A stretch of DNA of 64,000 nt from a virus (Duplodnaviria > Caudoviricetes): IMG/VR virus record IMGVR_UViG_3300025011_000016. One strand, 5' to 3'. Position 1 is the first letter of the stretch; every line of letters begins with the position of its first letter. Below, in pieces: positions 38,916-58,753 of the stretch. Below the pieces are notes generated by a model. It saw only the letters and a list, made by a program, of their open reading frames with translations, was not told the DNA's origin and ran no database searches. The translations under genes and the position numbers were made by a program.

Positions 38916-39300
38916 TTATCCACCATGATGAATATCGTCATAAACATCACCTGGAATTGTCAATATTTCATCAGGCATAATATCAGTAACAGCTATTAAA
39001 TCATCACCGACTAATTGACAATTTGGATTTTGATCATATTGAATATGCAAACCTAAATAATTTACCCAATGATTTACATATAAGGGACTTACTATTTCAC
39101 CAGAATTTATTTTTTTACTAGTATAGAATGTCATTTTCCCATCTTCATCCCATTTACTATATATTGAATTCGGAAGTGATTCTACACCAACACCTTCTTT
39201 GATAGGTTCCCATGGTTTATTAGTATAAATTTCTTGCAATTTTCTTTTTAATTCAATTAAGACTTTATTGCCAAACATGGTTAATAGAATACTAGGAGTC
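38916..39300 (-). CDS. RNA polymerase beta-like subunit, exon 7 (with SET-like tail)
   Basis: AT|G ACT CCT AGT junction gives ARMTPSILLTMFGNK; 385 nt. Confidence 0.8.
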
Positions 39301-39577
39301 CAATAATGTTAATAATATTCGTTAAATATTATAAAGGATAAAATCCTTTCTCTATCTTTCAATAGAAGTTCAGACTATTTCATCATCTCATTAGAGATGC
39401 TTCTTATTTTGATTCACACTTGTAAATCTAAGAACTCTACCGTTCTAGTCGTTGAACCTTATTCTTTTGTAAGAATATTGGCTGCGGATTGTCCAATCTA
39501 TATTAGTAAAGCCCTAAGAAGTTTCCCGCAATTAAAGAAGTTTGCATTATATATCACTATACAATGGGACGAATTCC
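39301..39577 (-). ncRNA. Group I intron 6 of the RNAP gene (277 nt, ORF-less)
   Basis: P1 GGAU/GUCC with the U.G splice pair; core motifs AATTGCGGGAAAC, AATCCGCAGC, GTTCAACGACTA, ATAGTC; omega-G 39301. Confidence 0.85.
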
Positions 39578-39711
39578 ATCCTCGCTAAAATTGAGCCCGG
39601 TGCTATGGTGGAACTTATTTCTTCATTAGGCCGAGATAAGGCGTATGGTTCAAAACCTTCCTCGACCACCTCCCCTATGATAGACTTGAGAGCGGTGAAA
39701 TAGACAATCTT
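39578..39711 (-). CDS. RNA polymerase beta-like subunit, exon 6 (134 nt; not in the ORF track)
   Basis: KIVYFTALKSIIGEVV...PGSILAR completes the GDK motif begun in exon 5. Confidence 0.8.
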
Positions 39712-40931
39712 CTTTATATTCATACATGTCCATAAGCATGTATAAGTTCACATATGGAACTTCCCTAAGTTTCCTTAGGATACTAGACTATATCTTCATC
39801 TCTTAATAAGGTAATTACTTCTTAGATAGAGATGCTTCTTATTTCGATTTAAGGGGATTTCACCCACCCATTTAGGCCCTACTCCTATTGTGTATTTCAA
39901 CACTAAAGGATAGTCGTTGAACGATATGTTGTAAGACATTCTTTATATATACCTTTATATAATTTACCCTGGTTTAATTTTTTTAACATATTTTTTAATT
40001 TTTTTGAATCATAATCAAATTTAGGTAATATATCTTTTATACGTATACCTTGAATCAACATATTACTCATCTCAATAATATCTTCTTTACTATAAGTTTT
40101 ATAATATATTTTATCATTATCCCATACATACAAATCACTTATAGCTCTCCAACTTTTTCTATGTTTAATTTCAGATAACATAGATAATATATTCGGTCTA
40201 TCTTCCCAATGAAATATATTAATTATTTTTGTTAAACTATATCCCAATACAAAGTATTTACATATTTGATGTACTTCATCGTTTGTAAAGAATGCTTTAA
40301 AGTGTCTGTCACAATTCTCATAAAGGTTATTCTTAGCGGCGTGTGCCTTATTTTCATTAGCAGTCACCCATTCTAAATTATCAACCCTATTATTTAATTT
40401 ATTACCATCTATATGATTAGCCTCTAACTCTTCTATAATATTATTGGGTAATGGATTAAAATGGATCAATACCAAACGTTGAACTGAAAATTTTTTGTAC
40501 TTCTTATTATCTACCTCTAAAGCAACACGACAATATCCTTTTTCATTACCGGGGTTATTAAATCCTAATATTTTATTTCGTTCAATGTTCTTTACCCTAC
40601 CATGATCACTAATCATATACTTAGGTTTGATATTTTTATACACTATATCTTTCCATTGCTCATGGTCAGTTACAATATTTATAAATAATTTCATAGAAAC
40701 ACCTCTTTAATTTTTATATTAGATATACGTTTAGCCATATATTATTAGTTATTTTTCTTACAACACATTCGCTGCGGATCATCCAATCTTTATCATTATT
40801 ACTTATACTAGGTTAATTACTCCCAGTCATTAATATAAAATTAATTAGTAGATAGAGCAATAAGGATATCCCCGCAATTAAAGAAGTTTTTTACTAATAT
40901 ATCACTATACTAGGGAGACAAACTGTATGTA
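39712..40931 (-). ncRNA. Group I intron 5 with an HNH homing endonuclease in P6a
   Basis: Perfect P1 GGAGAU/GUCUCC; core motifs present; P6a arms at 40756-40768 and 39924-39936 enclose the HEG; omega-G 39712. Confidence 0.85.
39903..40694 (-). CDS. NUMOD4-HNH homing endonuclease (I-HmuI-like)
   Basis: EQWKDI...YMISDHGRV (NUMOD4); NHIDGNKLNNRVDNLEWVTANEN (HNH); RBS GAGGTG. Confidence 0.9.
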   Translation of the reverse strand: MKLFINIVTDHEQWKDIVYKNIKPKYMISDHGRVKNIERNKILGFNNPGNEKGYCRVALEVDNKKYKKFSVQRLVLIHFNPLPNNIIEELEANHIDGNKLNNRVDNLEWVTANENKAHAAKNNLYENCDRHFKAFFTNDEVHQICKYFVLGYSLTKIINIFHWEDRPNILSMLSEIKHRKSWRAISDLYVWDNDKIYYKTYSKEDIIEMSNMLIQGIRIKDILPKFDYDSKKLKNMLKKLNQGKLYKGIYKECLTTYRSTTIL

Positions 40932-41657
40932 ATCTCCAATCCCGAGCACGTCATTATACTTAATATAAAATTCAAATAAAACTCCTTGGTCCACTACAGT
41001 ACCTTTAACTTTACCATCCTTAGATTCGATTTTTTTAGTGGGTTCGTTCATCATAATGCCACATTTATATATAGAATCCCCTTTATCATATTTATTGAGA
41101 ACATTTTTCTTCTTATTTATTCTAGTATAATAATCAGATACAATTTTTCTCAATGAGGGACTTAACTCTTCTAGTTCAACCGTAGTGTAGATCTTGATAT
41201 CTACAATCTCACCAGAATACTTAGTTTTAATAGGCGTTTTCCCTAATGATTTAATATCTTCTCGTAATTCCTTACCAATAGAATCTAAAAATTTATTTAA
41301 TGAGTTGTCATCAAAAGAAACTTCGAACCGGATAAGTTCATCTGAAACTTGAACTTTCTGCCCTATCTCAACCATATAGTCAACATTCGCATTTAAACCT
41401 AGAGCAACAGTTTTTTCCATAACAATGTCTGCCGCCATTTCTCTACCCAATTTCTTTGTTATAAAAGCAGAATCTTCAAAGGTAGAATATGTTGATAAAC
41501 ATGCAACTTTTTGTAATGATCCAATATTAAATCTATTACCAGTTATTTTACTATCAGTAAAGAATTTACTATCCGATGCAAGTATATCTTTTTGTTTAAA
41601 TTTTTGACCTTTAACTAGATTACATGTTAATTTATTTGATAGATAGAAACCCCCAGC
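40932..41657 (-). CDS. RNA polymerase beta-like subunit, exon 5
   Basis: AGGFYLSNKL...EDSAFIT...LGIGD; 726 nt; double-psi barrel region of beta. Confidence 0.85.
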
Positions 41658-41838
41658 CATTATATTCATATAGATTATAAACCTATACAGTTCTCAAATG
41701 AACTTCCCTAATGTTAATTAGGATACTAGACTATATCTTCATCTTATAAAGATGATCCCTATTTCGATATATAAATATATCTACGAGTTCTCACTCTAGT
41801 CGTTGAACCTGTCTTATAGTAATATAGAAGATTATAAG

Positions 41839-41848
41839 TATATATTAT
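41839..41848 (+). promoter_or_regulatory. Early-type promoter motif TATATATTAT inside intron 4, antisense to the RNAP gene
   Basis: Exact match to the motif found upstream of other non-structural genes. Confidence 0.55.
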
Positions 41849-41886
41849 ATTAATAGATAATAAAATAAAGGAGCCAAATAATTACT

Positions 41887-41949
41887 ATGTTCCACGTTAT
41901 TATATTCTTTATGTTGCTTCGTATTCTCAGTCGTTTAGGTAAAAAATAA
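41887..41949 (+). CDS. 20-aa hydrophobic peptide MFHVIIFFMLLRILSRLGKK (not in the ORF track)
   Basis: RBS AAAGGAG upstream; first ORF after the early motif. Confidence 0.4.
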   Translation: MFHVIIFFMLLRILSRLGKK

Positions 41950-41966
41950 TTAGGGAGTGTTTTACT

Positions 41967-42332
41967 ATGATTACACCAAAGGATATTTTAATGAACTTAA
42001 TTCAAACTGCACAAGACGATGAATTATTTCAAGAAAATGCCATTGAGTTAACCAACAGATTTTTCTATAATCGATTTCTTAGTGTCTTAAAACAATATAA
42101 CGGTGATGAGGCTAAGGCATATGACGCCTTCATCGTAAAAAAGAATCTATATCTCTTCAATTTATATATTGAGGAGTTCATTGATTTACAGCGTTCCACT
42201 TATCAATCTATGTATCCATCACAATGGACTGAGAATCCATATAATATGGTTTTACGTAAAGAACTCAGACAGATTCATCATTATCTATGTGCCGACCCAA
42301 GAATACTTGACATGCCATCATATCACGGATAA
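41967..42332 (+). CDS. Hypothetical 121-aa protein antisense within intron 4
   Basis: RBS AGGGAG, ATG start, normal composition, own terminator at ~42348-42377; no HNH, GIY-YIG or LAGLIDADG motif. Confidence 0.7.
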   Translation: MITPKDILMNLIQTAQDDELFQENAIELTNRFFYNRFLSVLKQYNGDEAKAYDAFIVKKNLYLFNLYIEEFIDLQRSTYQSMYPSQWTENPYNMVLRKELRQIHHYLCADPRILDMPSYHG

Positions 42333-42347
42333 TCTATTAATACTATA

Positions 42348-42377
42348 TGGGTGATTTTATATCACCTCTCTTTTTTT
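42348..42377 (+). terminator. Intrinsic terminator of the antisense cassette
   Basis: GGTGAT-tttat-ATCACC followed by TCTCTTTTTTT. Confidence 0.6.
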
Positions 42378-42492
42378 ACTATAAGACTTGGCTGCGGATT
42401 GTCCAATCTTTATTATATAAAGCTCTAAGGAGTTTCCCGACAATTAAAGGATATTCTTTATACATTCACACATATAAAGGGCATTTTAGTTT

Positions 42493-42724
42493 ACCATTTT
42501 TAACTACTTTAGTTGAAGTATCAATAGCTTGTATAGAATTGTCTTTATATCTAATAATAGTTAAACCATTAGCATCATTAACTTCTTCTACAATACCATC
42601 TTGTTTCGCCACAATAACGAAGTCATTTGATAAATGATATTGAATAACTTGTTCCGCACCATTAGATATTAAAACAGGTGATGATTTTACAATAGGTATG
42701 ATATGCTTCGATTGTTTACTGGCC
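42493..42724 (-). CDS. RNA polymerase beta-like subunit, exon 4
   Basis: (M)ASKQSKHIIP...TKVVKNG; 232 nt; corresponds to beta MQRQAVP region. Confidence 0.8.
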
Positions 42725-43012
42725 CTTTCATGCACATGAGTTATTAGCACATGCAGTTCTCTTACGAACTTCCCTAACTTTCATTAGGATAATAGACTAT
42801 ATCTTCGTCCTTTATTTTTTTTATATAAAGGAGTTTCTTATTTCGATACATAAAGTATCTACGAGTTCACACTCTAGTCGTTGAACCTTCCTCTTATAAA
42901 GAGACTTGGCTGCGGATTGTCCAATCTTTATCTTATAAAGCTCTAAGGAGTTTCCCGTCAATTAAAGAAATGACTTTAAATATATTACTATACTTATGCG
43001 ACAGTATTATTC
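42725..43012 (-). ncRNA. Group I intron 3 (288 nt, ORF-less)
   Basis: P1 GCGAU/GUCGC; core motifs present; omega-G 42725. Confidence 0.85.
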
Positions 43013-43032
43013 ATCGCAGTTCTTGTACTATC
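43013..43032 (-). CDS. RNA polymerase beta-like subunit, 20-nt micro-exon 3 (DSTRTA-M)
   Basis: GAT AGT ACA AGA ACT GCG AT, bounded by omega-G 43033 (7-bp P10) and the P1 of intron 3. Restores RDDSTRTAMASKQ, like beta HDDANRALMGANMQ. Confidence 0.8.
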
Positions 43033-43807
43033 CGTAACCATTCATGTTTCCATAAATGACAGACTATATCTTCATCTACATAGTTACATGTTTAGATGTC
43101 CTCCATTTCGGCTTATAAATAAACCTACGAGTTTACACTCTAGTCGTTGAACCTTTCTCTATAAAAAATAGTAATATCATACTCTGAATTTATATATCAT
43201 ATACTTGAATATAATAAAATAATGGAGTTGAATTGATATGATATGATAATAAATGATATCCATAATATAACAGACTTCGATCAGTATATAGAATTCTATA
43301 CTCAATTAACTAATACATATGGTAAACTAAATCATTATATCTCCAAAATATTTGAAAGGCGTGGAAATATCAGTATTGACCATCTACCAATTAAATCACA
43401 TAAACTTAAACTCGGTACTCTTTTATATCATGTATCCGAAACTAAATATGATTTTTTAAAATCATCATTTAAAAGTAGAGATGAATTTTTATACTCTGAA
43501 AATAGAATATATTTTACTACAGACATCGAATCATTAGAGCCACATTTTAAAAAGTATCGATATGTCTATATGTATGTAGTTACAGGTAATGAAAATACAT
43601 TTATCGACTATGAGTATAATAATAACAAATCATTCTATATATCTAATGATAAACCATTTGAAATTAAAGAGGTTCAACTTCTTTAATTTTTTTATAGAGA
43701 CTTGGCTGCGGATTGCCCAATCTTTATATTATAAAGCTCTAAGGGGTTCCCCGACAATTAAAAGGATTCTTATTATGTATTTCTACATAAAGGGACAATA
43801 GTAATTT
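43033..43807 (-). ncRNA. Group I intron 2 (775 nt) with an antisense ART-like gene in P6a
   Basis: P1 GGGAU/GUCCC; P10 of 7 bp; P9.0 GU/AC; P6a arms at 43157-43168 and 43688-43699. Confidence 0.85.
43243..43686 (+). CDS. ADP-ribosyltransferase-fold (Arr-like) protein, antisense within intron 2
   Basis: LLYHVS...NRIYFTT...YVYMYVVTG...FID...SFYISNDKPFEI parallels Arr FYHGT...NHIYFT...VYIVEPTG...D...SYRS..P. RBS TGGAG; early-like motif TATATATCAT at 43191-43200. Confidence 0.55.
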   Translation: MIINDIHNITDFDQYIEFYTQLTNTYGKLNHYISKIFERRGNISIDHLPIKSHKLKLGTLLYHVSETKYDFLKSSFKSRDEFLYSENRIYFTTDIESLEPHFKKYRYVYMYVVTGNENTFIDYEYNNNKSFYISNDKPFEIKEVQLL

Positions 43808-44091
43808 ATCCCGTGTTACACCCAATGGTGATAATAATTCAGCAGGAGAAAATAAATTTGAATCTTTTAATTTATCCAATTGATCATTCTTTATGTCAAT
43901 ATAACCCCTCGGACTAACTATATTAGGTTCTAATGTTAACTGTCTAACGATACCACAGTTTGCGTCGGGTGACGTTGATATTGCTATAATACCTAACATA
44001 GTTTCATCATACGCTCTCTTATCTTGGGTATAAGCGTTATCTTCGTTCATCCCACTAAATCCCTTTTGGGATATCACACGACCTTTTTCCA
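43808..44091 (-). CDS. RNA polymerase beta-like subunit, exon 2
   Basis: T|TG GAA AAA gives NPIVELEKGR...SPDANCGIVRQLT...GVTRD; 284 nt. Confidence 0.85.
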
Positions 44092-44374
44092 CAAATAGTT
44101 AACATTATTTGTTAGATAATGTAAAGATGTTATCTTTCTCTATTTTTCAATAGATGTTCAGACTATATCATCATCTCCATTGAGATGCTTCCCGTTTCAG
44201 TTTAAGGAATTAACTTCCACTCACTTGAGCCCTATAAGTTAGTCGTTGAACCTTATTCTATCATATAGAATATTGGATGCAGATTGTCCAATCTTTATAT
44301 TATAAAGCACTAAGGGGTTTCCTGCAATTAAAGAAGTTTGCATTATATATCACTACATAATGGAACTACGAAAA
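44092..44374 (-). ncRNA. Group I intron 1 (283 nt, ORF-less)
   Basis: P1 GAAU/GUUC; core motifs present; omega-G 44092. Confidence 0.85.
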
Positions 44375-47024
44375 ATTCAACTATGGGATTTAGTGTAGAA
44401 TAATCTTCAATCGTCTGACCCATTAATAATTCTTTAGTTACGTAATCCCTGGGAAGTGAAATACGGACTGGATTATTGTTGTTAGCAGTTGCTTTATACC
44501 TACTATACTGCTGAGCAATACCTTGATATAAAATTGCACTTACTACCTCATTGGAACGAATCCTATAAAGACTCATATCCTTTTCATTAATATATGAATT
44601 ATCAGATAATAAAGCATTGGCAAATAACATTAAACTTACAAAATCTGTAGGATAATTTAAGTCTTCTAGAACTTCTTTGGTGATTGGATCTATTAAAAAC
44701 TCATAAAAGTTATCAAAAGCGTTACCGATTATCTTAGTATTAAACATGGTATCAAATATTGTTAGATACGTTTCCTTATCATCAAAATCTGTATATTCGA
44801 ATGCTTTAGTAGGTACATCGACAAAGGCATTCATTAATAAAGAATTCTCAAAGGGATTCACATCATATACAAGATACCCATCTGAAAATTGAATTGAATT
44901 TTCATTATCAGCAAGTTTTGGTCGTTTATCAACAAATTGATGTTTGATATTGGCTTTCTTCAGCACTGAGGTTAAACCCTCTACATACCCTAATAATAAT
45001 ACTAATGGTACATTTTTTTTCATAATATACGCTCTTGTGTAAGAAAACTTTTTGCCAGCTTTAGTATCTTCAAATTCTTTGAATGCTTCACCTGAAGATA
45101 CTGACATTATAAAATCAACAATATCGAAATTACCCATACGTTGAGTACTATAGTTCATAATGATAGGACTACGAGGATTTATGAAAAATCCAATACAGAA
45201 CTCATCTTCTTTAAGTTTAGTTTTATATTTAACTAATAAATCATGAACTTCGTTTTGATCAAAATAGAACTCACAATTTGATATTTTAATATATGAGATA
45301 TATTTCGATAATTCATCATATTCCAATAGAGATTTGTACTTAGAGTTATTATTGGCATTATTACCATATTTGATAATTACACCAGATCTGGGTATAGATA
45401 TGACTTTCTTAAATCTTTCTATTTTGGATGAAACTTTGTTGCCATATCTCATAATAAAGATTTTTTTATAGTTACTACAAACCTGAACCTTATCGGGCCC
45501 AATCTTTATTACAGGTTTAGAGAACAATTGCTTATTGATAATCTTCTTATTACCATTTAGATATAAGAATTTATCATCAATAAACTTAGGCATATCAAAC
45601 TTTAATTTATGTCGGACTCTATTTGAATCTTCAAGTTCAACCGAAAAAGTCTCTCTGTAATTTAATTCATCAGAGCTATCTTCAACGTCTATCTTTCTAA
45701 CAAATACAGGAAGGCCCTTATCATTTAAACATGTTAATGTATTGGCAACATCAGCATGATACAGATTTTCATTATACGACTTTTCAAAGAAAGGATATTT
45801 AATTCCAGTCATATTTTTGTTAATAGTATTAACATTACTCGTCACATCAATTGACGGAATAAAAGATTCTTTTAATTTAATATTTCTGGCTTCATCTAAA
45901 GTCATTTTACCCAACATAATATTCTTTTGATTTTCTCTTAACTCAATATCTCTTTTTAATGACTGAGGAGTTCTACCAACTTTCTTTTCCTGATTAAGTG
46001 TATAGATTTCCTTTAATAACTTCTCGTCATTAACTAATACATTCTCCAATTTATCTTTTAATTCCTTTGTAGTTTGGGTTTTGGCTTCAGGTGAATTAAC
46101 TAACTCATCTATTCTAGAAGTAATAGCTTCCTGAAATTCTTCATCGTTATCTCCTTCAGAAACTTCTTCATCTTCATCTTGAGGATCATCTGGATGATTC
46201 CCAGTAAAACCGAATGTATATAAGAATTTACCCAGAAGATCATCTCTAATTTCTTGAACTTCAATTTGTCTATCTAGGTCTTTATCGTTATCGGTAATAT
46301 TCATATCAGGTGCAATCTTAATTAATTCTCTTCTTAATACCGTATAAGATTTATCATCACATAATGATGGATTGACTCGTATCATAGTATTTCCACCATA
46401 AATTAATATATTGATATCTCCAAGTTCTTGAAACTTCTTAAAGAACTTATGCATAGCATAATAGATAATAAATACAGGATTATTTAATACCATCTTTTGT
46501 TTCATTGACGCTCTAACATTCTTTACCCAACTATCGGCATCGATACATATAGTTTTAAGATTATACTCATCATATTTAGAATCCACCAATATAGACTTTA
46601 TTAAATCCATATAAGCTAATATCTTAACATTAAATTTTATCTTTACTCCATATTTAAAAAAGATCTCATTATATTTAGATAAATCCACATAAACATTCTT
46701 ACCATCAATACTATCTAACTGAGTCGGTGTATTAATAAATGATAATTTAGAATTTACTTCAGAATAGATTAACTGTCTCTCCTTATTAACTAATGATCTA
46801 TATGTTTTATTGAATAATTTACCTTTATATGATTGATCGATAAAATAATAATGGAATTTATTGTTATGATATATTAGAGGATTATTAATAAGGTTAATAG
46901 ATGATTGTAAAGTATTGTTATTGATAAGAACTAGGCTGTGTAATGTGGGTGTTTTGGGATTTACATCTAAAACCGTTTTCTGTTTATATAATTTTAGATG
47001 CGGTGTACTAGAAACACTATTCAA
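44375..47024 (-). CDS. Multisubunit RNA polymerase beta-like subunit, exon 1 (probably virion RNAP, phiKZ gp178-like; spliced length 1476 aa)
   Basis: Exon lengths 2650+284+20+232+726+134+385 = 4431 nt, one open frame with beta motifs. Late promoter and size suggest the virion enzyme. Confidence 0.8.
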
Positions 47025-47070: not shown

Positions 47071-47169
47071 GATAAATCGTAAAATAATGATTGTAGAGTA
47101 GAAAGTAATAATGTTTACAACTATATATTATATACTAGTAAAGAAATAAAAATTAGGAGGAATTTATTA

Positions 47170-47907
47170 ATGACAGATTTAGAAATAGTGAAGATGAATC
47201 ACCTAAATATTTTAATTCTCCAGAATCCTCCCAGTAAAGAAGTTCAATTAGCAACTGTCAAAAAAAATGGCCTTATGATCAGATACATTGATGATCCAGA
47301 TAATGAAATCAAATTAGCTGCTGTAAGACAAAATTGTGAAGCTCTTAAGTATATTAAAAATCCCGATACTGAAGTGCAGTTATTAGCAGTAAAGTATGAT
47401 CCTACTGCTATTGAACAAATTATAGATCCAAGTAAACCGATCCAATGCGCTGCAGTTTCAGCCCATGGTCTTGCACTTCAGTATATTAAAGAACCAACTA
47501 GAATTATACAAAGTGTAGCGCTTAAACAAAATGGATATGCTATTAAGTTTATAGCTAGTCCGGATAAAGGTCTGCAATTAATAGCTGTTAATGAAAGTGG
47601 ATGTGCTATTAAATATATCAATAACCCTGATATTGATGTACAAATATTAGCATTGGAAAAAGATGGTGATGCTATCCAATTTATTAAAAACCCATCGAAA
47701 GATTTACAGTTAATAGCTGTAAAACAAAATCTTAGATCGCTTACATTAATTGATAATCCAGACTCTGAAGTTACAGAATATGTATTATTAGAATTAATGA
47801 AAGAAAGGGAAAGAATTACAAATGCTAATAATGTGAATCATAATAAACATATTAGTTGCAATCTCATATTAGACGTATCTACAGTGACTGATCTAAAGAA
47901 ACATTAA
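47170..47907 (+). CDS. DUF4116-like 22-aa repeat protein 1
   Basis: Repeats of [N/D]PxxEVQLxAVxxNGxAIxYIx; early motif at 47122; RBS AGGAGG. Confidence 0.8.
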   Translation: MTDLEIVKMNHLNILILQNPPSKEVQLATVKKNGLMIRYIDDPDNEIKLAAVRQNCEALKYIKNPDTEVQLLAVKYDPTAIEQIIDPSKPIQCAAVSAHGLALQYIKEPTRIIQSVALKQNGYAIKFIASPDKGLQLIAVNESGCAIKYINNPDIDVQILALEKDGDAIQFIKNPSKDLQLIAVKQNLRSLTLIDNPDSEVTEYVLLELMKERERITNANNVNHNKHISCNLILDVSTVTDLKKH

Positions 47908-47940
47908 ATAAAAGAATAAAATATTAGGAGGAATTTATTA

Positions 47941-48816
47941 ATGGAAAAATTAACAGATTTAGAAATGATGCAGAAAAATCCTTTAAATATCATGTTTATT
48001 GAGAATCCTAGTAAAGAGGTTCAATTAATTGCAGTCAATCATAATGGAAAATATATCCGGTTTATTAAAAACCCAGATAAGGATGTTCAACGCGCTGCTG
48101 TTATTGAAACTGGTCGTAATATTAAATTTATTATGAACCCAGATATTGAAGTCCAGTTAATCGCTATAAATCAATCTTGGGCTTATATTAAATTTATATC
48201 AGATCCACATGAGGAAATTCAACAAATCCTAGTCAAAATTAATCCTACCTATATCAGTTTAATAAAAAATCCAGCATTATCTGCACAATATCAAGTATTG
48301 AATCATTCCCCTAACGGGAAGTATTTTAAATATATCAATAATCCCGATGTAACAATTCAACTAGAGGCAGTTAAACGAAAAAGTCGCAATATCAAATATA
48401 TAGACAATCCCAGTGAGGAGGTTCAGTTAGTTGCTGTTACAAAGAGGCCAATTTCTATTAAATTTATTAAAGAACCGACTAAAGAGGTCCAATTAATCGC
48501 TGTGGTATATTATGGGCGTAACATTCAATATATCAAAAACCCCGATGAGGATATCCAGGAAGCTGCAGTTATATCAGATGCGCCAACTATTCAATTTATT
48601 AAAGATCCAAGTATAGAGATACAAGAAGTTGTAATTTCCATGAATGTTAGTTTTATTAGATATATTGAAAATCCAGATATGTGTATTCAACTGAAGGCTG
48701 TTGAAATTGATATTGATAATATTAAATATATTAATACTCCGCACTCAGAAGTATTAGAATATGTAAAACAAAAACTTCGTGATAAATTAAATGACGATAA
48801 AGGAAGTGTTAATTGA
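47941..48816 (+). CDS. DUF4116-like 22-aa repeat protein 2
   Basis: About 12 repeats. Confidence 0.8.
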   Translation: MEKLTDLEMMQKNPLNIMFIENPSKEVQLIAVNHNGKYIRFIKNPDKDVQRAAVIETGRNIKFIMNPDIEVQLIAINQSWAYIKFISDPHEEIQQILVKINPTYISLIKNPALSAQYQVLNHSPNGKYFKYINNPDVTIQLEAVKRKSRNIKYIDNPSEEVQLVAVTKRPISIKFIKEPTKEVQLIAVVYYGRNIQYIKNPDEDIQEAAVISDAPTIQFIKDPSIEIQEVVISMNVSFIRYIENPDMCIQLKAVEIDIDNIKYINTPHSEVLEYVKQKLRDKLNDDKGSVN

Positions 48817-49532
48817 TGACTGATTTAGAAATGGTGCAGAAGAATCCTTTAAACATTTTACTTATTAAAAACCCAACTAAGGAGATTCAAATGGTAGTCG
48901 TTACAAATGAGGGTAGTAATATTCAGTTTATTGAGAGTCCTGATAAAGATGTGCAAATAAAAGCATTATCTAGTAGTAAATTTGATAGTGACGATATAAT
49001 CAAATATATTAAAAATCCAGACATGGACGTGAAATCAACAGCAGTAAGTATTGACGGATTTGCTATCCAATATATTAAAGACCCGAGTGAAGAATTACAA
49101 TTACTTGCGGTCAAAGAAAATGCATACGCCCTTCAATTCATTAAAGATCCAAGTAAAAAGGTCCAGTTGGCTGCGGTGAGTAATGATGGGGATGTTATTG
49201 AATATATCAAAAACCCAGATAAGGATGTACAAATAGCCGCAGTACAAGAATCAGGTTATGCCATTCGATGGATCGTTCATCCTGATGATGACATTTGCGT
49301 TATGGCTCTACAACAAAATGGATTTGCCATCAGTTGCTTTGGGGAACCTTCAGATGCATTAAAACTTATTGCAGTTCAACAAGATGGCAATGTCATTCGA
49401 TGTATTGAAAATCCATCAGTTGAGATTCAAATGATCGCTGTAAAACAGAGTATTAATTTTATTACACATTTATTCAATCCCCATCCTGATGTATTAGAGT
49501 ATGTAAAACAAGAACTATTAAAGAATTTGTAA
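48813..49532 (+). CDS. DUF4116-like 22-aa repeat protein 3
   Basis: Repeats; ends HPDVLEYVKQELLKNL. Confidence 0.8.
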   Translation: MMTDLEMVQKNPLNILLIKNPTKEIQMVVVTNEGSNIQFIESPDKDVQIKALSSSKFDSDDIIKYIKNPDMDVKSTAVSIDGFAIQYIKDPSEELQLLAVKENAYALQFIKDPSKKVQLAAVSNDGDVIEYIKNPDKDVQIAAVQESGYAIRWIVHPDDDICVMALQQNGFAISCFGEPSDALKLIAVQQDGNVIRCIENPSVEIQMIAVKQSINFITHLFNPHPDVLEYVKQELLKNL

Positions 49533-49575
49533 TCTATGAAATAAAGAATATGATAATTCATACTCTTTATTTTTT
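49476..49575 (+). repeat. ~100-bp direct repeat (gene end plus terminator), copy 1; copy 2 at 50182-50281
   Basis: About 4 mismatches in 100 nt by manual alignment. Confidence 0.85.
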
Positions 49576-49647
49576 ATTAAATCTAATAATCTATTCAACT
49601 ATATATTATATATTAGTAAAGAAATAAAATTTAGGAGGAATTTATTA

Positions 49648-50238
49648 ATGGAAAAATTAACAGATTTAGAAATGGTGCAGAAGAATCCTTTAAACATTAT
49701 ACTTATTGAGAATCCAGATGTTGATGTGCAGTTAGCTACAGTAAATAAAGACGGGTTATTGTTACAATTTATCATCAACCCTAACCGTGAAGTCCAAGAG
49801 TGTGCTGTTAGAAATAACGGTGATGCAATTCAGTTTATTGCAGATCCTGATTTTGAAATGCAATTAATTGCTGTATATAGTAATTCTATGAGTATTCGCT
49901 TCATTAAAGATCCAAATATGCCTGTTCAAAGAGCGGCTATTATACATGGTGGAGGGGGCCGGGCTATTCAGTGTATTGAAAATCCAGAACCCCATATACA
50001 AATAATGGCATTCAAACAAGATAGCTATCAATTCAAATCCCCTTTTGAAGACGAATATAAAGAGATTATGAAATTTCGACGAGAATATTTTACAAATACC
50101 ATTAAAAATATCAAAGATCCACATCCAAAAGTTCAATTGTATTCCGTTGAGCATGATATCAACTCAATCAGATATATCAATAATCCCCATCCTGATGTAT
50201 TAGAGTACGTGAAACAAGAACTATTAAAGAATTTGTAA
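49648..50238 (+). CDS. DUF4116-like 22-aa repeat protein 4
   Basis: Repeats; 5' 44 nt (49631-49674) identical to 47924-47967. Confidence 0.8.
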   Translation: MEKLTDLEMVQKNPLNIILIENPDVDVQLATVNKDGLLLQFIINPNREVQECAVRNNGDAIQFIADPDFEMQLIAVYSNSMSIRFIKDPNMPVQRAAIIHGGGGRAIQCIENPEPHIQIMAFKQDSYQFKSPFEDEYKEIMKFRREYFTNTIKNIKDPHPKVQLYSVEHDINSIRYINNPHPDVLEYVKQELLKNL

Positions 50239-50324
50239 TCTATGAAATAAAGAATATGATAATTCGTATTCTTTATTTTTTTAAGTATATATTATATTAG
50301 TATATAGAAAGGGGATGTAATATA

Positions 50325-50507
50325 GTGGACGATGATGTGAAATTAATAATTGACGATTGTTTGTGCCAGCTACGTATTAAAAACCCAGGAATATTCATAT
50401 ATCTAAAAGATATTAATATTGAATGTGGCCATTTTAGTGTCCAGGTCGGTGATGAATTAGATCCACGAGATTATACATTTATGCAACAATGGGGTGATGT
50501 TAAATGA
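50325..50507 (+). CDS. Small hypothetical protein
   Basis: Early motif at 50286, RBS AAGGGG, GTG start, overlaps the next start codon. Confidence 0.5.
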   Translation: MDDDVKLIIDDCLCQLRIKNPGIFIYLKDINIECGHFSVQVGDELDPRDYTFMQQWGDVK

Positions 50508-50977
50508 CTGATCTGGAGCTTATAAAAATACACCCAATAAATATCCTATTAGTTGATAAGCCGGATATTACTTTACAAAAGGCGGCTATTCAAAAATATG
50601 CTGTCAGTATTCAATTTACTGACAATATTGATAGTGATATAAAATTAGCAGCACTATGGTATGACCATAGATCTAAATTCTTTGTGGGGTTTATTAAGGA
50701 TGGTAGCAATAAGACTCAGCTCTTCATATTTGAAATGGATGTCGATACAAATTTTTATCATATTATAGATCCACATAAAGATTTGGATTTAATACATATG
50801 AGCTCTAATGGATATAGTATGAATCATGTTAAAAATCCCAATAGGGATATATTACTAGGGTTTGTGAAAAACAAAGAATTGTCTATCCAAATTATTGAAG
50901 ACCCAGACGATGATGTTCAGATGGTAATTATACAACAAAATAGTTGGCTATTTGATGGGACGTTTAACTATAAATAA
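50504..50977 (+). CDS. Degenerate DUF4116-like repeat protein 5
   Basis: MTDLELIK.HPINI N-terminus with eroded repeats. Confidence 0.6.
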   Translation: MTDLELIKIHPINILLVDKPDITLQKAAIQKYAVSIQFTDNIDSDIKLAALWYDHRSKFFVGFIKDGSNKTQLFIFEMDVDTNFYHIIDPHKDLDLIHMSSNGYSMNHVKNPNRDILLGFVKNKELSIQIIEDPDDDVQMVIIQQNSWLFDGTFNYK

Positions 50978-51099
50978 TTAGTATCATTAAATAAAGAATA
51001 CATTAATTCGTATTCTTTATTTTTTTTGTAATATTTAATATTCTATTCAACTATATATTATAGATCAGTAAATACATAAATTATTTAGGGGGAATTGAG

Positions 51100-51651
51100 A
51101 TGACATCTGAGACTAATCAATTGATACGATCAACATTATCTTTAATAAAGGAGAATCCTTTATACATTAAACTTGTTAAAAATCCAAGTAGGAATTTGCA
51201 ATTAGCCGCAACACGGGAGTCTGGTTATATTATCCAGTATATTAAGAATCCAGATAAAGAAGTTCAACTTACTGTGGTCCGAAGAGATGGAAATGTAATT
51301 AAGTATATCCAAAACCCGGATAAGGATGTTCAAATTGTAGCTGTACGACAAAACGAATGTGCTATCCAATTTATTACCAATCCACACATAAAAGTTCAAC
51401 TTATTGCAGTTAAGGAAAATGGCCTTGTTATTAAGTATATCAAAGATCCAATCAGATCAGTTCAATTACTTGCTGTAAGACAAAATCCCGAAGCCATACA
51501 GTACATCAAAGATCCTGATAAAAGTATTCAGTTGATTGCTGTAAAGAGTCAGATTTCAACTATTAATATGATTGATAATCCAGATCCTGCCATATCAGAA
51601 TATGTTAGGCATGAATTAAAGAAATTGGATTATCATTCTGAAATAAATTAA
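51100..51651 (+). CDS. DUF4116-like 22-aa repeat protein 6
   Basis: Regular repeats; early motif at 51052. Confidence 0.8.
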   Translation: MTSETNQLIRSTLSLIKENPLYIKLVKNPSRNLQLAATRESGYIIQYIKNPDKEVQLTVVRRDGNVIKYIQNPDKDVQIVAVRQNECAIQFITNPHIKVQLIAVKENGLVIKYIKDPIRSVQLLAVRQNPEAIQYIKDPDKSIQLIAVKSQISTINMIDNPDPAISEYVRHELKKLDYHSEIN

Positions 51652-51665
51652 AGGGGTGTTTATAA

Positions 51666-52187
51666 ATGGATAGAAATAAATTTCGTTTCATAACATTTTT
51701 CAAAACATATAGGGTTGTAGAACTGGCAGATTTGGTCGCCACGAAAATTGAAAGGAGTGAGTCTTACTATATTCATAAAAGTAGACCTAGTTCTATACAT
51801 AAATCATATAGACCATCTACTATTATTACCAAGCAAGAATTTGAAGAGCTTTTATCCACAGCAAAATGTCCTATTATATTAAGTGATGAATACATTGATT
51901 TAGATATGGAAATAGATATTTATGATGGTATTATGGAAGAATCAATAGATTTACAAATGGTGCGATTAAATCCAGATATCATTAGAAGTATTGGAAATCC
52001 AAGTGAAGAGGTTCAATTAACTGCTGTGGAAAGTTTCGGTATGGTAATCAGATTTATTAAAACACCTAGTATTGATGTACAATTAGCGGCAATTAAAAAT
52101 TGTCCTTTCGCGTTATGTGTTATTGATAAACCTGATCCTAGTGTAGTAGAATACGCTAGAAGTGAATTAAAAAAGAGGGGATATTAA
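51666..52187 (+). CDS. Unknown N-terminal domain fused to ~3 DUF4116-like repeats (protein 7)
   Basis: Repeats start after residue ~95. Confidence 0.7.
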   Translation: MDRNKFRFITFFKTYRVVELADLVATKIERSESYYIHKSRPSSIHKSYRPSTIITKQEFEELLSTAKCPIILSDEYIDLDMEIDIYDGIMEESIDLQMVRLNPDIIRSIGNPSEEVQLTAVESFGMVIRFIKTPSIDVQLAAIKNCPFALCVIDKPDPSVVEYARSELKKRGY

Positions 52188-52219
52188 ATTCAAAATAAAT
52201 ATTTAGGAGGAATTTAAAG

Positions 52220-52933
52220 ATGAATAATACATTATTAGTAATCAAAGATCCTTTAAACATCTTAACCATTAAAGATCCGAGTGAAGAGGTTAAACTAGCT
52301 GCCGTAACCACAGCAGGTTATGTTATCCAGTTCATTGAAAATCCAAGTGTTAATCTCCAATTAAAAGTCGTACGGACAGATGGAAGACTTATTCGTTATA
52401 TCAATAATCCATGTAAAGAAGTTCAGATAGCTGCAGTTGAGCAGAATGGAGTAGCTATTCGTTACATACCAGACCCATGTGAAGAGGTTCAATTGGCGGC
52501 TGTACTTGAAGAAGGGACTTCTATTAAGTTCATTAAAAATCCTTCTATTCAGTTACAAACTATTGCTGTTCAACAGAATGGTTACGCCATTCGATATATT
52601 TCAGATCCAAGTAAAGAACTTCAACTTACTGCTGTAGAGCAAAGTGGTTGTGCTATTAAGTATATTAGACAACCTGCTAAAAATATCCAAATGGCTGCCG
52701 TAAAACAGGATGCACGAGCTATGGAGTTCATTAAAGTATTCAGTATGGAGGTAGCCATATTAGCTGTACAAAAGGATTGTTCTACTATTAAAAGATTTGC
52801 CCATCCTAGTAAAGAAGTGCAAATGGCTGCTGTTAAGACTGATATACATTGTATTAGATATATTATCAATCCTGATGCTGAGGTAATGGAATATGTAAAA
52901 CAACAGTTAAAACACTCTATAGTTTTCAGATAA
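52220..52933 (+). CDS. DUF4116-like 22-aa repeat protein 8
   Basis: About 10 regular repeats. Confidence 0.8.
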   Translation: MNNTLLVIKDPLNILTIKDPSEEVKLAAVTTAGYVIQFIENPSVNLQLKVVRTDGRLIRYINNPCKEVQIAAVEQNGVAIRYIPDPCEEVQLAAVLEEGTSIKFIKNPSIQLQTIAVQQNGYAIRYISDPSKELQLTAVEQSGCAIKYIRQPAKNIQMAAVKQDARAMEFIKVFSMEVAILAVQKDCSTIKRFAHPSKEVQMAAVKTDIHCIRYIINPDAEVMEYVKQQLKHSIVFR

Positions 52934-53016
52934 CTTAATTAACTAAAAGTAAGAATACGATAATTCGTATTCTTACTTTTTTTGTTTATATATTATAATA
53001 ATGTAATACATAAAAA

Positions 53017-54552: not shown

Positions 54553-56577
54553 ATGGAAGGTTATTTTAAATTACCGGGTACTGTAAAAGCAGATCTTGCT
54601 GCGTATAAGGCAGAAACTACGGCACAGTTAGCTGATAAAGCACCGCAAATAGCATTAGATATTGAGAAGGCAAGGATTAATAATTTAGTCGCGGTCACCA
54701 ATGCTTCTTTTTACGAAAAATCTACAGCAGGGATAACTGGAGTATTATTAATAGTAGAGAGTGGAGCAACTACAGGACAAATTAATCTTGCAAGCGTTAC
54801 ACCAGTAGCGACAGGATATACAGCAGTAGCGGGTGATTATGTATTACTTGTTTATGGTGTAGCGAGTGGTAGTGCAGAATTAATAGATCTGAAAATTGGG
54901 GCCGATGGTATAACCTATGGAAGTGCAGGGGAAGCAGTCAGAGGGCAAATTGGTAAATTAAAGACAAATATTGGTGGTGAAAAAGATTGGACACACTTAA
55001 CGGGTGATTATGTATTACAAACTGTACCGGCAATAAGCGGTGCAAGATGGTCTGCTATGAATAGCGACCTTGGACATACATTAATTCTTTTAACCAGCCT
55101 ATTATACTACTATTACACAGAACCTATCGAAGTTAAGGCGGGAGATAAATTCCATATTCAGGTTACAGGTAGCAGGGCTGATTTGTACCATGTCATTTAC
55201 TTGGATGAAGATTCTATCTTCATTGGGGGGGAATGTTATGGTGACGGTGTATGGGATGTTGAAATTACTATACCAGAAAACTGTAAATACTTAGAATTCA
55301 ATATATTAGCAAATTTGTCTGTGTATAAGTACATTTATGACAGACTTGCAACCGAAAAGTATGTTGAAACAAATTGCGTTACATTTTCAGACAAGTCTTT
55401 AACATACCAAGACCCTGCTAATAGATGGAATGTAGGTACACAATCGGTTGTCGATGAAATGACAACTTATCTAAACAGTGTGAAATTTGATAAGGATACA
55501 TTTGATGTCCGCTATAAAATGACGACTAATTTTTCCCATGATTCCAAACTTGCGATTGATGCAGTAAATGGTTTAGCCTATTGCTGTATGCTTACTAATG
55601 ATGTTGGAACAGGAGATAGCCCAACGTATACAGACGCATATTCTATTTTGGAAATAATTGATTTGGATAGTTGGACATTACTTGGTAGGCATGATGCTGG
55701 TAAGTATGGGGATGCGGTTGGCGGTTTTACAATTATCTCAGGTGTTGGCGGTGCTACACCAATTATCATTGATGGGGATATAACAGTTACGTTTTGCGCG
55801 AAACTTAGTGACAACAAATGGTATATGTTGCGTAAAGTGTTTGATGTAGCAACTAGCACTTTCGGAGCTACTGCTATTTGCCAGTTTACTCACGAGGCGG
55901 CGACCTTTGATTTTACAACTGATAATATTAGCTTAAATGTATTCACGCTTCCAAGTGTAGACCACTTTCCTAATGTTGGGGCACAGGCGAGTAAACACAC
56001 TGATGGTTATTATTATTGTGGCTTACTGTTCAATAGTTTGATTCCAAACAGTATTTTGATCAGGACACTAGATTTCTTAACCTTTGAATATTGGCTTGAA
56101 CCTCAATTCGTTGATTCGCAAGCTAACTGGGAGGGTTCTTGCTTCTGCAAAGATGGTTATCTGTATTACGCATTAAGGCAAATTTCAAATAGCACAGAAC
56201 CATTCAATACTAAAATACTCTTATCTAAAATCAATCTTACGTCTAAGGCGATAGTGGAACAAATTAAGATTCAAGATGCTGGGTCAAAAGGATATTTTTT
56301 CACAGATGGTACTAATATTTATTTGGTTCATAGCACATGTGCAAGACAAAGAACTGAAATATTAAAAATAGACCCTTCCAATCTTGGTAATAGCAGTATC
56401 GTTGTTCAAGGAACGATGCAATCTGTCTATCCAAACATTGAAGCATACAATGGATATTATTACTTGCTTGGAACTGGAAATAGTTCGACTAGTGTATATC
56501 TTAGAAAATTTGACTTGTTGCCTTACGCAAATCTTGATATATCAAATAGAGTGGTAAGTTTATTTGATATTCAGTAG
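54553..56577 (+). CDS. Tail fibre / receptor-binding protein with a putative beta-propeller (sialidase-like) C-terminus
   Basis: N-terminal AETTAQLADK and GEAVRGQI tail-protein motifs; aromatic-rich propeller-like C-terminus. The composition shift begins near its 5' end. Confidence 0.5.
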   Translation: MEGYFKLPGTVKADLAAYKAETTAQLADKAPQIALDIEKARINNLVAVTNASFYEKSTAGITGVLLIVESGATTGQINLASVTPVATGYTAVAGDYVLLVYGVASGSAELIDLKIGADGITYGSAGEAVRGQIGKLKTNIGGEKDWTHLTGDYVLQTVPAISGARWSAMNSDLGHTLILLTSLLYYYYTEPIEVKAGDKFHIQVTGSRADLYHVIYLDEDSIFIGGECYGDGVWDVEITIPENCKYLEFNILANLSVYKYIYDRLATEKYVETNCVTFSDKSLTYQDPANRWNVGTQSVVDEMTTYLNSVKFDKDTFDVRYKMTTNFSHDSKLAIDAVNGLAYCCMLTNDVGTGDSPTYTDAYSILEIIDLDSWTLLGRHDAGKYGDAVGGFTIISGVGGATPIIIDGDITVTFCAKLSDNKWYMLRKVFDVATSTFGATAICQFTHEAATFDFTTDNISLNVFTLPSVDHFPNVGAQASKHTDGYYYCGLLFNSLIPNSILIRTLDFLTFEYWLEPQFVDSQANWEGSCFCKDGYLYYALRQISNSTEPFNTKILLSKINLTSKAIVEQIKIQDAGSKGYFFTDGTNIYLVHSTCARQRTEILKIDPSNLGNSSIVVQGTMQSVYPNIEAYNGYYYLLGTGNSSTSVYLRKFDLLPYANLDISNRVVSLFDIQ

Positions 56578-56616
56578 GTCGTAGTTGACGCAAACCCCGA
56601 CACAGAGAGGTGAAAA

Positions 56617-58434
56617 ATGGCACAACTAAAAATATTAAACCCCTCCCTCGAACCTTTGGCGATACTACTTAACGTAGTGTCGCCTTCTGTTTCCGAAGAA
56701 ATAAACCGCGAGTTCACGGCATCGTTTCAAACCATTATCGACGGCGACAAAAGCGACTACATCACCTATCAAAACATCGTCGAAATTGAAGGTAACTATT
56801 TTAACATCGTCTACACGAAAGACAACCACAACCCCGACGGCACACTGACAATCGACGGTGAGTGTGAGCATGTGAGTTATGATCTAATCGGCGACGAAAA
56901 CGACCCGGCAGACCCTATGATACATGAGTATTACGCAAATGTTGGCACCCCTACAGCGTTACTGACAACGTTGCTTTCCGGCACAGGCTTTACGGTAGGA
57001 CAAGTTGATTTTACTGCGCTGACAACTATCGCGATTAACGAAAAGGTTAACAAGCGGGGAATACTCATAACGCTGGCTGAACAGTTAGGCGGGGAACTAA
57101 AGTTCGACAAGTACGAAATATCCCTATTGTCGCGCAGGGGAGCGGATCGTGGGCTAGGATTTAGGTATCGTCGAAATCTAGCTAGTATGTCGCGGATCAC
57201 AGACAACCGTAACAAGGTTGATGGATTGCCTACCGTGACATACACCACGGATGTTGTCGAATTGGAGTTCGCTGAAGGGCATGGGACTGACGATCATTAC
57301 GAGTTGGGGGATACAGTTTATCTATTTGACGACCAGTTAGGCATTGCAAATGTGCCACTTAGAATTATCAAGGAGTCTCACAACCCTCAGCAACGTATGC
57401 AGGGAAACGTGACTATATCAAATCTCTCGGACGCATTCGTAAAGGATATACATGACACGGTGGCTGGGTTGCAACAGAGTACAGTGTATAAGGGAGCGTT
57501 GTACAACGGGGTAAGGATAAGTGCATACGATGGGTTCGTGGCGACTAGGACGGACAATAAAGTCAGGACGACACTCAATGCAACGAATGGAATTTCGGTA
57601 CAAAGTGGCGATGGTTTAGGTACGTGGGTAGACAGGTTTTACGTCGATATTGACGGCAACACTCGCCTGAAAAATGCTTTTATTGACATAACTAGTGGTG
57701 ACACATATATCCTGATTAGCCCGACTGAGGGGATCAGGATTACAAAGGATAGTGTCGATAAGTTTTCCTTAGACACCAATGGCAATGTGCAGCTAAAAGA
57801 CGCATCAATCAACATAACCAGTGATGGCACAAACATAATTATTAGCCCGGTCGAAGGGATTAAAATTACCAAGGACAGCGTCGATAAGTTCTATGTCGAT
57901 GTCAATGGAAATCTAACCTTTGACGGCAAGATGATGGTAACTGACTCAGGGAATACTTTGGCGGAAATATTCAAGGATACTAACGGAGGGATTCTAAATC
58001 TCTATGATTTGTCAGGAAACCTGAATGTAAAGATCGGAGTAGAATCAGGAGTTGCAGGGAATACAGGGGGAACGCTGGTCTTGTTTAAGGATGTTCCTCC
58101 CGGATCTGATCCAATCAATTTTAGAAGGGTAGAACTTGGCATTAGCAGTACGTTTGACTGTGGGGCTGCAAACTTTAGAGACACAAGCAACAAGGTTAGG
58201 GCTAGTATTCAAGCCGACTCTTCCGCTGGCCCGTATATCGGGATAAGGGATTCCGCAGAAGTAATGAAGAGTTATATTTCCGAGTTTTTTGGCAAAATAG
58301 ACAACGAATTAATTGCAACTAGGCCTTGGGTAGATATCCAAATAGCCGCCTACGACCTGGTTATAAAGGAATGGGTTGTAGAGCAAATAGCGGCTGTAAT
58401 ATTTACACACATTGAGGAATTCCACACACCATAA
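56617..58434 (+). CDS. Siphophage-type tail hub / prophage tail endopeptidase-family protein
   Basis: VSEEINREFT.SF...ECEHVSYDL...GGELKFDKYEISLL.RRGADRG..FRY.RNL; 42-aa internal repeat (DKFYVD.NGN...) x2.5. Confidence 0.7.
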   Translation: MAQLKILNPSLEPLAILLNVVSPSVSEEINREFTASFQTIIDGDKSDYITYQNIVEIEGNYFNIVYTKDNHNPDGTLTIDGECEHVSYDLIGDENDPADPMIHEYYANVGTPTALLTTLLSGTGFTVGQVDFTALTTIAINEKVNKRGILITLAEQLGGELKFDKYEISLLSRRGADRGLGFRYRRNLASMSRITDNRNKVDGLPTVTYTTDVVELEFAEGHGTDDHYELGDTVYLFDDQLGIANVPLRIIKESHNPQQRMQGNVTISNLSDAFVKDIHDTVAGLQQSTVYKGALYNGVRISAYDGFVATRTDNKVRTTLNATNGISVQSGDGLGTWVDRFYVDIDGNTRLKNAFIDITSGDTYILISPTEGIRITKDSVDKFSLDTNGNVQLKDASINITSDGTNIIISPVEGIKITKDSVDKFYVDVNGNLTFDGKMMVTDSGNTLAEIFKDTNGGILNLYDLSGNLNVKIGVESGVAGNTGGTLVLFKDVPPGSDPINFRRVELGISSTFDCGAANFRDTSNKVRASIQADSSAGPYIGIRDSAEVMKSYISEFFGKIDNELIATRPWVDIQIAAYDLVIKEWVVEQIAAVIFTHIEEFHTP

Positions 58435-58493
58435 GCCATAGGGCTTATTTTTTATGGGTAGCAATGAAAGGATGGCGAAAGGAAGGTGTGCTA

Positions 58494-58742: not shown

Positions 58743-58753
58743 GAGGAATTGGT

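Follow-up and report, generated by a model that had tools for sequence, protein, structure and literature searches.

Putative antisense early transcription units in the P6a loops of group I introns that split the RNA polymerase beta gene of an uncultured jumbo phage

A virion RNA polymerase beta gene split by six introns of one family

We analyzed a 64,000-nt stretch of DNA (hereafter, the window) from an uncultured jumbo phage, IMG/VR record IMGVR_UViG_3300025011_000016, and focused on its gene for a virion-type multisubunit RNA polymerase (RNAP) beta subunit, which is interrupted by group I introns whose P6a loops, in several cases, hold further genes. The beta gene lies on the minus strand (38916..47024) and is divided by six introns into seven exons (47024-44375, 44091-43808, 43032-43013, 42724-42493, 41657-40932, 39711-39578, and 39300-38916). 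The exons match the PHROG RNAP beta families phrog_14872, phrog_3148, and phrog_38251, and the best tblastn match of the gene is AR9 g189, an annotated virion RNAP subunit; identity to the beta subunits of AR9, PBS1, BpSp, LPJP1, and SA1 is only ~30%. A late-type AACA-(6N)-TA motif and a ribosome-binding site (RBS) precede the gene, which is weak evidence for late expression as the motif is common. The same DNA occurs in identical copies on contigs from groundwater metagenomes, the longest being 272 kb.

For the exon map, we took as rulers the beta genes of LPJP1 (a Listeria phage) and SA1 (a Staphylococcus phage), both of which are uninterrupted, together with P1 pairings and terminal G residues read from the sequence. 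Removal of the introns in silico yields a single 1476-aa beta frame with zero stops, and this product aligns without gaps to the LPJP1 and SA1 proteins across all six junctions. P1 helices with a U.G pair at the 5′ splice site could be read for introns 1 to 6, and each of the six ends in a terminal G. We infer from these features that all six introns are spliced from the beta pre-mRNA. The span that the first-pass annotation had singled out, 39712-43807, runs exactly from the last base of intron 5 to the first base of intron 2.

Exon 3 (43013-43032, minus strand), located between introns 2 and 3, is a micro-exon of 20 nt that encodes DSTRTA(M), the beta active-site motif DxxRxxM; the 3′ splice site of intron 2 and the P1 helix of intron 3 both have to be accommodated by this exon. 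An alternative 25-nt exon encoding LRIVQELR was rejected, as the 20-nt exon (DSTRTA-M) aligns gap-free. Mini-exons of ~50 nt occur within this motif in AR9 and BpSp, too, at sites other than that of exon 3. At its C-terminus, the spliced beta product has ~95 additional residues (38916-39210, minus strand) that are absent from LPJP1 and SA1 and have no family match.

Three complete introns were identified with Rfam RF00028 on the minus strand (44384-44138, 43022-42772, and 39603-39350), with scores of 83-93 bits against a cut-off of 50. Introns 2, 4, and 5 were matched as split, sub-threshold halves of 27-37 bits, because the insert in each splits the covariance model. The R element GTTCAACGACTA occurs exactly six times on the minus strand of the beta gene, each with a Q element upstream, and the 5′ and 3′ cores of all six introns align as a single family. 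As expected of group I introns, the family combines RF00028 core matches with P1 pairing, a terminal G, and restoration of the reading frame.

The six introns differ in the distance between Q and R, which is 24, 552, 22, 582, 848, and 23 nt in introns 1 to 6, respectively. Those with a short, empty P6a are intron 1 (44092..44374; 24 nt; Rfam 85 bits), where the junction LNPIVE|LEKG restores collinearity; intron 3 (42725..43012; 22 nt; 83 bits), with P1 UGCGAU/GUCGCA and junction DSTRTA-M|ASKQSKH; and intron 6 (39301..39577; 23 nt; 93 bits), with junction ILAR-M|TPSILL. All six lie on the minus strand. Intron 2 (43033..43807; Rfam halves 43813-43655 and 43210-43040; P1 GGGAU/GUCCC; junction VTRD|DSTRTA) has a 552-nt P6a insert closed by a stem whose 13-nt arms (43156-43168 and 43688-43700) are 100% complementary and 519 nt apart; the stem starts with GUCUCU, as does the P6a hairpin of the empty intron 3. 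In intron 4 (41658..42492; Rfam halves 42442-42364 and 41837-41706; junction VVKNG|AGGFY), the insert is 582 nt long, and the closing stem (arms 41811-41831 and 42367-42387) has a perfect 12 bp at its base and encloses the cargo. Intron 5 (39712..40931; Rfam half 39948-39763; P1 GGAGAU/GUCUCC; junction GIGD|KIVYF) has an enlarged P5 region in addition to its 848-nt insert, which is closed by 13-nt arms (39924-39936 and 40756-40768) with 92% complementarity. The closing helices of the inserts (12-13 bp) extend the P6a hairpin that is present in the empty introns.

The insert of intron 5 holds an open reading frame (ORF) of 263 aa in the sense orientation (39903..40694, minus strand), which encodes an HNH homing endonuclease. 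Both of its domains score above the Pfam cut-offs (PF13392 HNH_3, 35.3 bits against 24.8; PF07463 NUMOD4, 33.5 bits against 23.4), and it belongs to phrog_59 (E 7e-35). The 3′ end of this ORF passes through the P6a arm and the R element. The anatomy described in the first-pass annotation, i.e., inserts at one position between Q and R in introns 2, 4, and 5, a short empty P6a in introns 1, 3, and 6, and a sense HNH endonuclease in intron 5, is thereby confirmed by the Q-to-R spacing, the closing stems, and the domain searches.

A seventh intron of the same family is located elsewhere in the window (15917-17574, plus strand), with its P/Q/R/S core at ~15925-16200, between the ORFs at 14593-15921 and 17541-18917. 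It was not reported by Rfam, even at E≤1. It carries a sense TnpB gene (16286-17518; Pfam OrfB_IS605, Cas12f1-like_TNB, and HTH_OrfB_IS605) 3′ of P9, which is an IStron-like layout. In the metagenome contigs, depth in the bins that cover the intron cores (39350-44384) is 7-10 times that of the exons beside them, and many joints connect these bins to other contexts, as would be expected if the phage or the sample contained the intron family in dozens of copies.

Antisense cargo of introns 2 and 4

The inserts of introns 2 and 4 contain ORFs on the plus strand, antisense to the beta gene. The unit in intron 4 begins with a predicted early-promoter motif, AAGTATATATTAT (41836..41848), which matches the AR9 early consensus at 12 of 13 positions and has a G at 7N. 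Its first gene, read from the sequence, is a small hydrophobic and basic ORF of 20 codons (41887..41949) with an AAGGAG RBS. It is followed by ORF121 (41967..42332), which encodes an all-helical protein and has a GGGAG RBS 9 nt upstream. In the promoter and terminator scan, a hairpin resembling an intrinsic terminator (GGGTGAT..ATCACCT plus a T-run; 42349..42376) was identified just inside the P6a arm.

One relative of ORF121 was found outside this phage (P0002), with 63% identity over 90% of the length. It closes an array of co-directional genes, with a strong terminator behind it and no intron RNA nearby. Because this homolog sits outside introns, ORF121 can be regarded as a real gene that is free-standing elsewhere. 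The AlphaFold2 (AF2) model of ORF121 is helical, with a predicted local distance difference test score (pLDDT) of 66. No match to ORF121 was obtained in Pfam, PHROG, fold families, or BFVD, and its Atlas matches were under the useful range.

In AR9, 41 early promoters have been mapped, with the consensus AAATATATATTAT-(6N)-G (Lavysh et al., 2017; PMC5312081). These promoters fire without new protein synthesis and are therefore used by the injected virion RNAP (PMC5312081). The annotated early promoters in the AR9 record read AAATATATATTAT, the same 13-mer with which AAGTATATATTAT was compared. In the window, the 10-mer TATATATTAT, which equals the mapped AR9 early consensus, occurs in 11 copies against 2.7 expected (4-fold), a count reached in none of 100 shuffles. 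Ten of these copies are followed, after ~20-60 nt, by an RBS and a start codon, among them the copy at 41839 before the intron-4 unit. Upstream of the ORF in intron 2, the motif TATATATCAT (43191..43200, plus strand; predicted), followed by 6 nt and then G, is one mismatch from TATATATTAT; a further copy of this variant, at 62098 on the minus strand, is likewise followed by an RBS and ATG. Both the intron-4 AAGTATATATTAT and the intron-2 TATATATCAT-(6N)-G conform to the AR9-type early consensus, and by analogy, the promoter specificity of AR9 may apply to this phage as well.

Exact TATATATTAT sites were also observed upstream of the beta gene, at 47122, 49600, 50286, 51052, and 52987, each before the RBS and ATG of plus-strand genes in a run that spans 47119-53000. 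The first gene of this run encodes a DUF4116 repeat domain. These genes probably form an early array that diverges from the late beta gene.

The cargo of intron 2 is ORF147 (43243..43686, plus strand), with conserved GTxLxH, NRIYF, and DxE motifs. An AT-rich hairpin with a T-run at 43661..43694 (plus strand; repeat 43661-43674/43676-43689, 93% complementary) may be its terminator, a weak candidate judged from the repeat. An exhaustive phmmer search of 1.84 billion representatives identified eight relatives, the best with 40% identity (E 8e-19). The GTxLxH, NRIYF, and DxE columns are invariant in this family; in particular, H63 (GTxLxH), Y90 (NRIYF), and E124 (DxE) are invariant in seven family members and, in the order expected for a catalytic triad of the H-Y-E type (or R-S-E / H-Y-D), are candidates for its residues.

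The predicted structure of ORF147 points to an ADP-ribosyltransferase (ART) fold. The AF2 model built on the family alignment has a pLDDT of 83.8, and in an exhaustive VIA-align search, nearly all of the top 50 structural matches had the ART fold, with Z from 7.1 to 3.3. They include AvrPphF (7.1), Tpt1 (6.0), CopC (5.5), Tne2 (5.3), KptA (5.2), diphtheria toxin (5.0), and Arr (4.5), as well as RES, DarT, and ParT. KptA/Tpt1 ranked first in a Foldseek search against the Swiss-Prot AFDB (prob 0.93), and the Atlas matches were of the Arr/RES/ART-PolyVal kind. Searches at other levels were negative: seven family members had no Pfam match, there was no PHROG match, the family profile retrieved only insignificant barnase and START matches among PDB sequences, and Foldseek found nothing significant for the model in the PDB (E 0.13 or higher). 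As no curated sequence family matches, we file ORF147, on the strength of the model, as an ART-fold protein and not under Arr, Tpt1, or any other named family. It is probably an NAD+-using ADP-ribosyltransferase or a KptA-like enzyme, judging from the modeled fold, and perhaps acts in host take-over or counter-defence.

The closest relative of ORF147 (P0004) is a free-standing unit in another jumbo phage, consisting of a terminator, an exact AAATATATATTAT, an RBS, the ORF, and a terminator. The 209-kb JGI contig that carries it comes from another AR9-like phage and has an RNAP beta gene without interruptions, with the unit 2.3 kb downstream of this gene. On that contig, the beta gene occupies 1-3657, the region 5880-6540 was also noted, and there are several exact AR9-type early promoters, one of them before the ORF147 homolog.

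Recurrence in phage BpSp and relation to known systems

A similar arrangement is present in the Bacillus phage BpSp (vB_BpuM-BpSp, KT895374), in which we examined the beta region (KT895374.1, 184000-196400) and the prohead protease region (135500-141500). The beta gene of BpSp is annotated as the separate fragments gp250, gp248, and gp245, with hypothetical proteins between them. It contains five introns by Rfam and by Q, R, and S elements; the record annotates no introns, and the prohead protease exons gp191, gp189, and gp188 are likewise listed as separate genes. Two of the hypothetical proteins in the beta gene, gp249 and gp247, are encoded antisense between R and Q, with TATATATTAT or AATATATTAT by R, an RBS, and a terminator by Q. 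In the prohead protease gene, gp190 is also antisense between R and Q in an intron, again with TATATATTAT or AATATATTAT by R and an RBS. Thus, antisense cargo in BpSp occupies three P6a loops in two host genes. The antisense gene gp246 occupies a different loop, the one that separates R from S. Its homolog in AR9, g169, stands free as a pre-early gene for which an early promoter is annotated (PMC5312081 for the AR9 data). No relatives or domains were detected for gp249, gp247, or gp190; ORF121 and gp190 share a weak BLASTP similarity (E 0.008).

Overall, the BpSp units share with those described here the antisense order of R, early motif, RBS, ORF, in some cases a terminator, and Q (gp249, gp247/gp246, and gp190, in beta and prohead protease introns), but they encode different proteins, apart from the weak similarity of gp190 to ORF121, and they occupy different sites, with gp246 in the R-S loop. 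Orientation follows the type of cargo: all five P6a loops with non-nuclease cargo (introns 2 and 4, gp249, gp247, and gp190) are antisense, and all three nuclease-type cargos checked (the intron-5 HNH ORF, AR9 g190, and TnpB at 16286-17518) are sense. The insertion sites differ by at least 5 nt from those of BpSp and AR9; intron 1 is 5 nt away from BpSp intron A, and intron 4 is ~12 nt away from the last BpSp/AR9 intron.

These comparisons bear on the proposal of the first-pass annotation that the P6a loop is an interchangeable cargo bay. The proposal holds insofar as the same loop is found empty, with an HNH gene, or with antisense units; it does not hold as an exclusive rule, as other bays are used by gp246 (between R and S) and by TnpB (3′ of P9). 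Its description of introns 2 and 4 as carriers of unrelated antisense non-nuclease units agrees with the ART fold and relatives of ORF147 and with the free-standing homolog of ORF121. Two findings would have spoken against it, and neither was made: such cargo is not confined to this phage, as the same layout recurs in BpSp P6a loops, and the inserts do not look like remnants of homing endonuclease genes, as ORF147 and ORF121 look non-nuclease and have relatives outside introns. Its suggested check, whether one intron site carries different cargo in different phages, yielded no example in the comparison with BpSp and AR9.

The usual view of ORFs in bacterial and phage group I introns is that they encode homing endonucleases or, in the case of IStrons, transposases. 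The closest known case is AR9 g190, which shares with the inserts described here the orthologous host gene (virion RNAP beta), the intron family, and the position between the 5′ core and R in P6a (PMC5312081). It differs in being a sense HNH homing endonuclease, whereas introns 2 and 4 contain two non-nuclease cargos on the opposite strand with terminator-like ends. The T4 td intron with I-TevI and other phage IA2 introns resemble intron 5, with an ORF in the P6/P6a loop whose end overlaps the P6a/P7 core (PMC3073962). Unlike introns 2 and 4, they encode sense homing endonucleases; we found no description of an antisense non-nuclease unit among them. IStrons also combine a group I intron with a non-HEG (homing endonuclease gene) mobile gene, and the intron with TnpB at 15.9-17.6 kb of the window is one such case. 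However, they carry a sense transposon module at the intron 3′ end, whereas introns 2 and 4 hold antisense units in P6a, and no transposase of an IS200/605-type module was found in these two introns in the Pfam and PHROG searches.

The morons of tailed phages are similar in being self-contained accessory units that are absent from relatives, and the free-standing homolog of ORF147 on the 209-kb contig is exactly such a unit between genes. The intron-4 unit, too, has its own promoter motif (41836-41848) and terminator (42349-42376), and the beta genes of LPJP1, SA1, and the 209-kb contig are uninterrupted. Classical morons occupy intergenic gaps, whereas here the units are inside an essential gene, where they could be tolerated because the surrounding intron is spliced out. 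Finally, I-DirII of the Didymium nuclear rDNA intron is an antisense intron ORF with its own promoter (PMC3073962), but it is a eukaryotic Pol II unit, and its product is a homing endonuclease. ORFs in P6a, AR9 g190, IStrons, morons, and I-DirII are all known. For phage introns whose cargo is an antisense transcription unit of non-nuclease type, the first-pass annotation knew of no established description, and we likewise found none in the literature searched.

Function and origin of the P6a cargo

We consider it probable that the P6a loop is a permissive site, which in introns 2 and 4 holds self-contained antisense early units while the essential gene is still spliced. The 12-13 bp closing stem would hold the long insert away from the ribozyme core, and the essential late gene for virion RNAP beta could therefore still be spliced. 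Within the loop, the two units may act as moron-like early transcription units, each with a promoter motif, an RBS, one or more ORFs, and a terminator-like hairpin, and their cargo is ordinary phage accessory genes. The injected virion RNAP would transcribe them early from their own promoters, and the beta gene would be transcribed late from the opposite strand; with the two strands active at different times, transcription would not collide. The antisense orientation would have two further benefits: the pre-mRNA would be spared from the unit's terminator, which in the sense orientation would truncate it, and ribozyme folding would be spared from translation of the cargo ORF. An experimental precedent comes from AR9, where the late gene g189 has an intron that contains g190 with an early promoter of its own (PMC5312081), and the AR9 data thus establish the principle for a sense endonuclease in the orthologous gene.

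Several points weigh against the model of a permissive P6a site with antisense early units. As RNAP identity to AR9 is only ~30%, promoter specificity is transferred to this phage by inference. In intron 2, the promoter motif has one mismatch, and the RBS of ORF147 is poorly spaced, with GGAG 15 nt upstream. The ART assignment is based on moderate structural scores (Z≤7.1; Foldseek E≥0.02) with no Pfam match, and ORF121 had no assignable fold or function in these searches. In addition, BpSp gp249, gp247, and gp190 could conceivably represent a novel nuclease.

Another possibility, the full proposal of the first-pass annotation, is that the introns are true vehicles, i.e., that the cargo spreads by riding on the intron; we regard this as unlikely, and no support for hitch-hiking with homing was found. 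A trans-acting endonuclease (the intron-5 HNH or a paralog) would cut intron-less alleles of co-infecting phages, and repair would then copy the intron with its cargo or co-convert its neighbors. Introns 2, 4, and 5 do lie within 4 kb in one gene, a plausible co-conversion distance from the HNH cut site, and both the multi-copy state of the intron family (core depth 7-10 times the baseline in metagenome contigs) and the same layout in BpSp are consistent with such mobility. However, no endonuclease is encoded in introns 2 and 4 themselves, both cargo genes have nearest relatives that are free-standing rather than intron-borne, and the insertion sites are not identical to those of BpSp or AR9. 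In INPHARED, IMG/VR, and the protein and metagenome searches, no other phage turned up that combines this intron with this cargo. More specifically, the 8.3-kb locus had no megablast match among the INPHARED phages, tblastn with ORF121 and ORF147 retrieved nothing from that collection, and IMG/VR scans with the beta exon and both cargo alignments returned nothing useful. The DNA contigs of four groundwater/sediment runs contained the same phage only, plus joints that stem from other copies of the intron core, with no cargo-less or intron-less allele. As the other metagenome copies are all ~100% identical, they offer no polymorphism to read.

It is quite improbable, in our view, that the antisense units instead serve the intron or the host gene, either by early antisense silencing of premature beta expression or as splicing or homing cofactors. 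The orientation is consistent in five loops, the weak terminator of intron 2 may let the transcript enter exon 2 in the antisense direction, and the two weakly similar proteins ORF121 and gp190 (E 0.008) are both intron-borne, all of which would suit such a role. Yet the intron-4 unit and those of gp249 and gp247 end in good terminators inside the loop, the homologs of ORF147 and ORF121 are free-standing genes away from introns, an ART-fold enzyme is not known as a splicing or homing factor, and the same late gene in AR9 needs no such unit. The idea that the plus-strand ORFs are decayed or unrecognized homing endonuclease genes, or chance ORFs in AT-rich DNA, seems to us highly improbable and is largely refuted for ORF147. 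In its favor, Pfam and PHROG matches are lacking for both ORFs, no fold could be assigned to ORF121 or to the BpSp proteins, and I-DirII is a known case of an endonuclease gene that lies antisense in a Didymium rDNA intron (PMC3073962). Against it, ORF147 has eight relatives, invariant motifs over its full length, and a confident model of an ART rather than a nuclease fold; ORF121 shares 63% identity, over 90% of its length, with a protein from a different genomic context; and both ORFs have promoter, RBS, and terminator features.

The permissive-site model has several implications. For annotation, it would explain the split RNAP gene of BpSp and the "hypothetical proteins" within it, which are unexplained in the record. 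With regard to gene gain, it suggests that a densely packed phage genome can acquire genes without opening an intergenic gap, and for intron biology, it raises the question of purely selfish introns versus adaptive cargo carriers. It also points to a small, uncharacterized ART-fold phage family that may act early in infection, and cultured BpSp on Bacillus pumilus offers a testable system. A more far-reaching extension, which we hold to be doubtful, is that the intron swarms of AR9-like jumbo phages form a gene-shuffling platform, in which peripheral loops, mainly P6a, would take up promoter-bearing early cassettes in a fixed antisense orientation. With dozens of near-identical intron cores in essential genes, intron recombination and endonuclease co-conversion would spread host take-over or counter-defence genes from locus to locus and among co-infecting phages. 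If this were true, a selfish element would have turned into a carrier, and selection on the essential gene could not remove it.

At the far end of the window (56000-64000), the G+C content rises from ~30% to ~45%. Among the genes of this region, one encodes a prophage-tail endopeptidase-like protein (56617-58434) and another an Amidase_3 lysin (58754-59422); these genes may have been acquired from a host.

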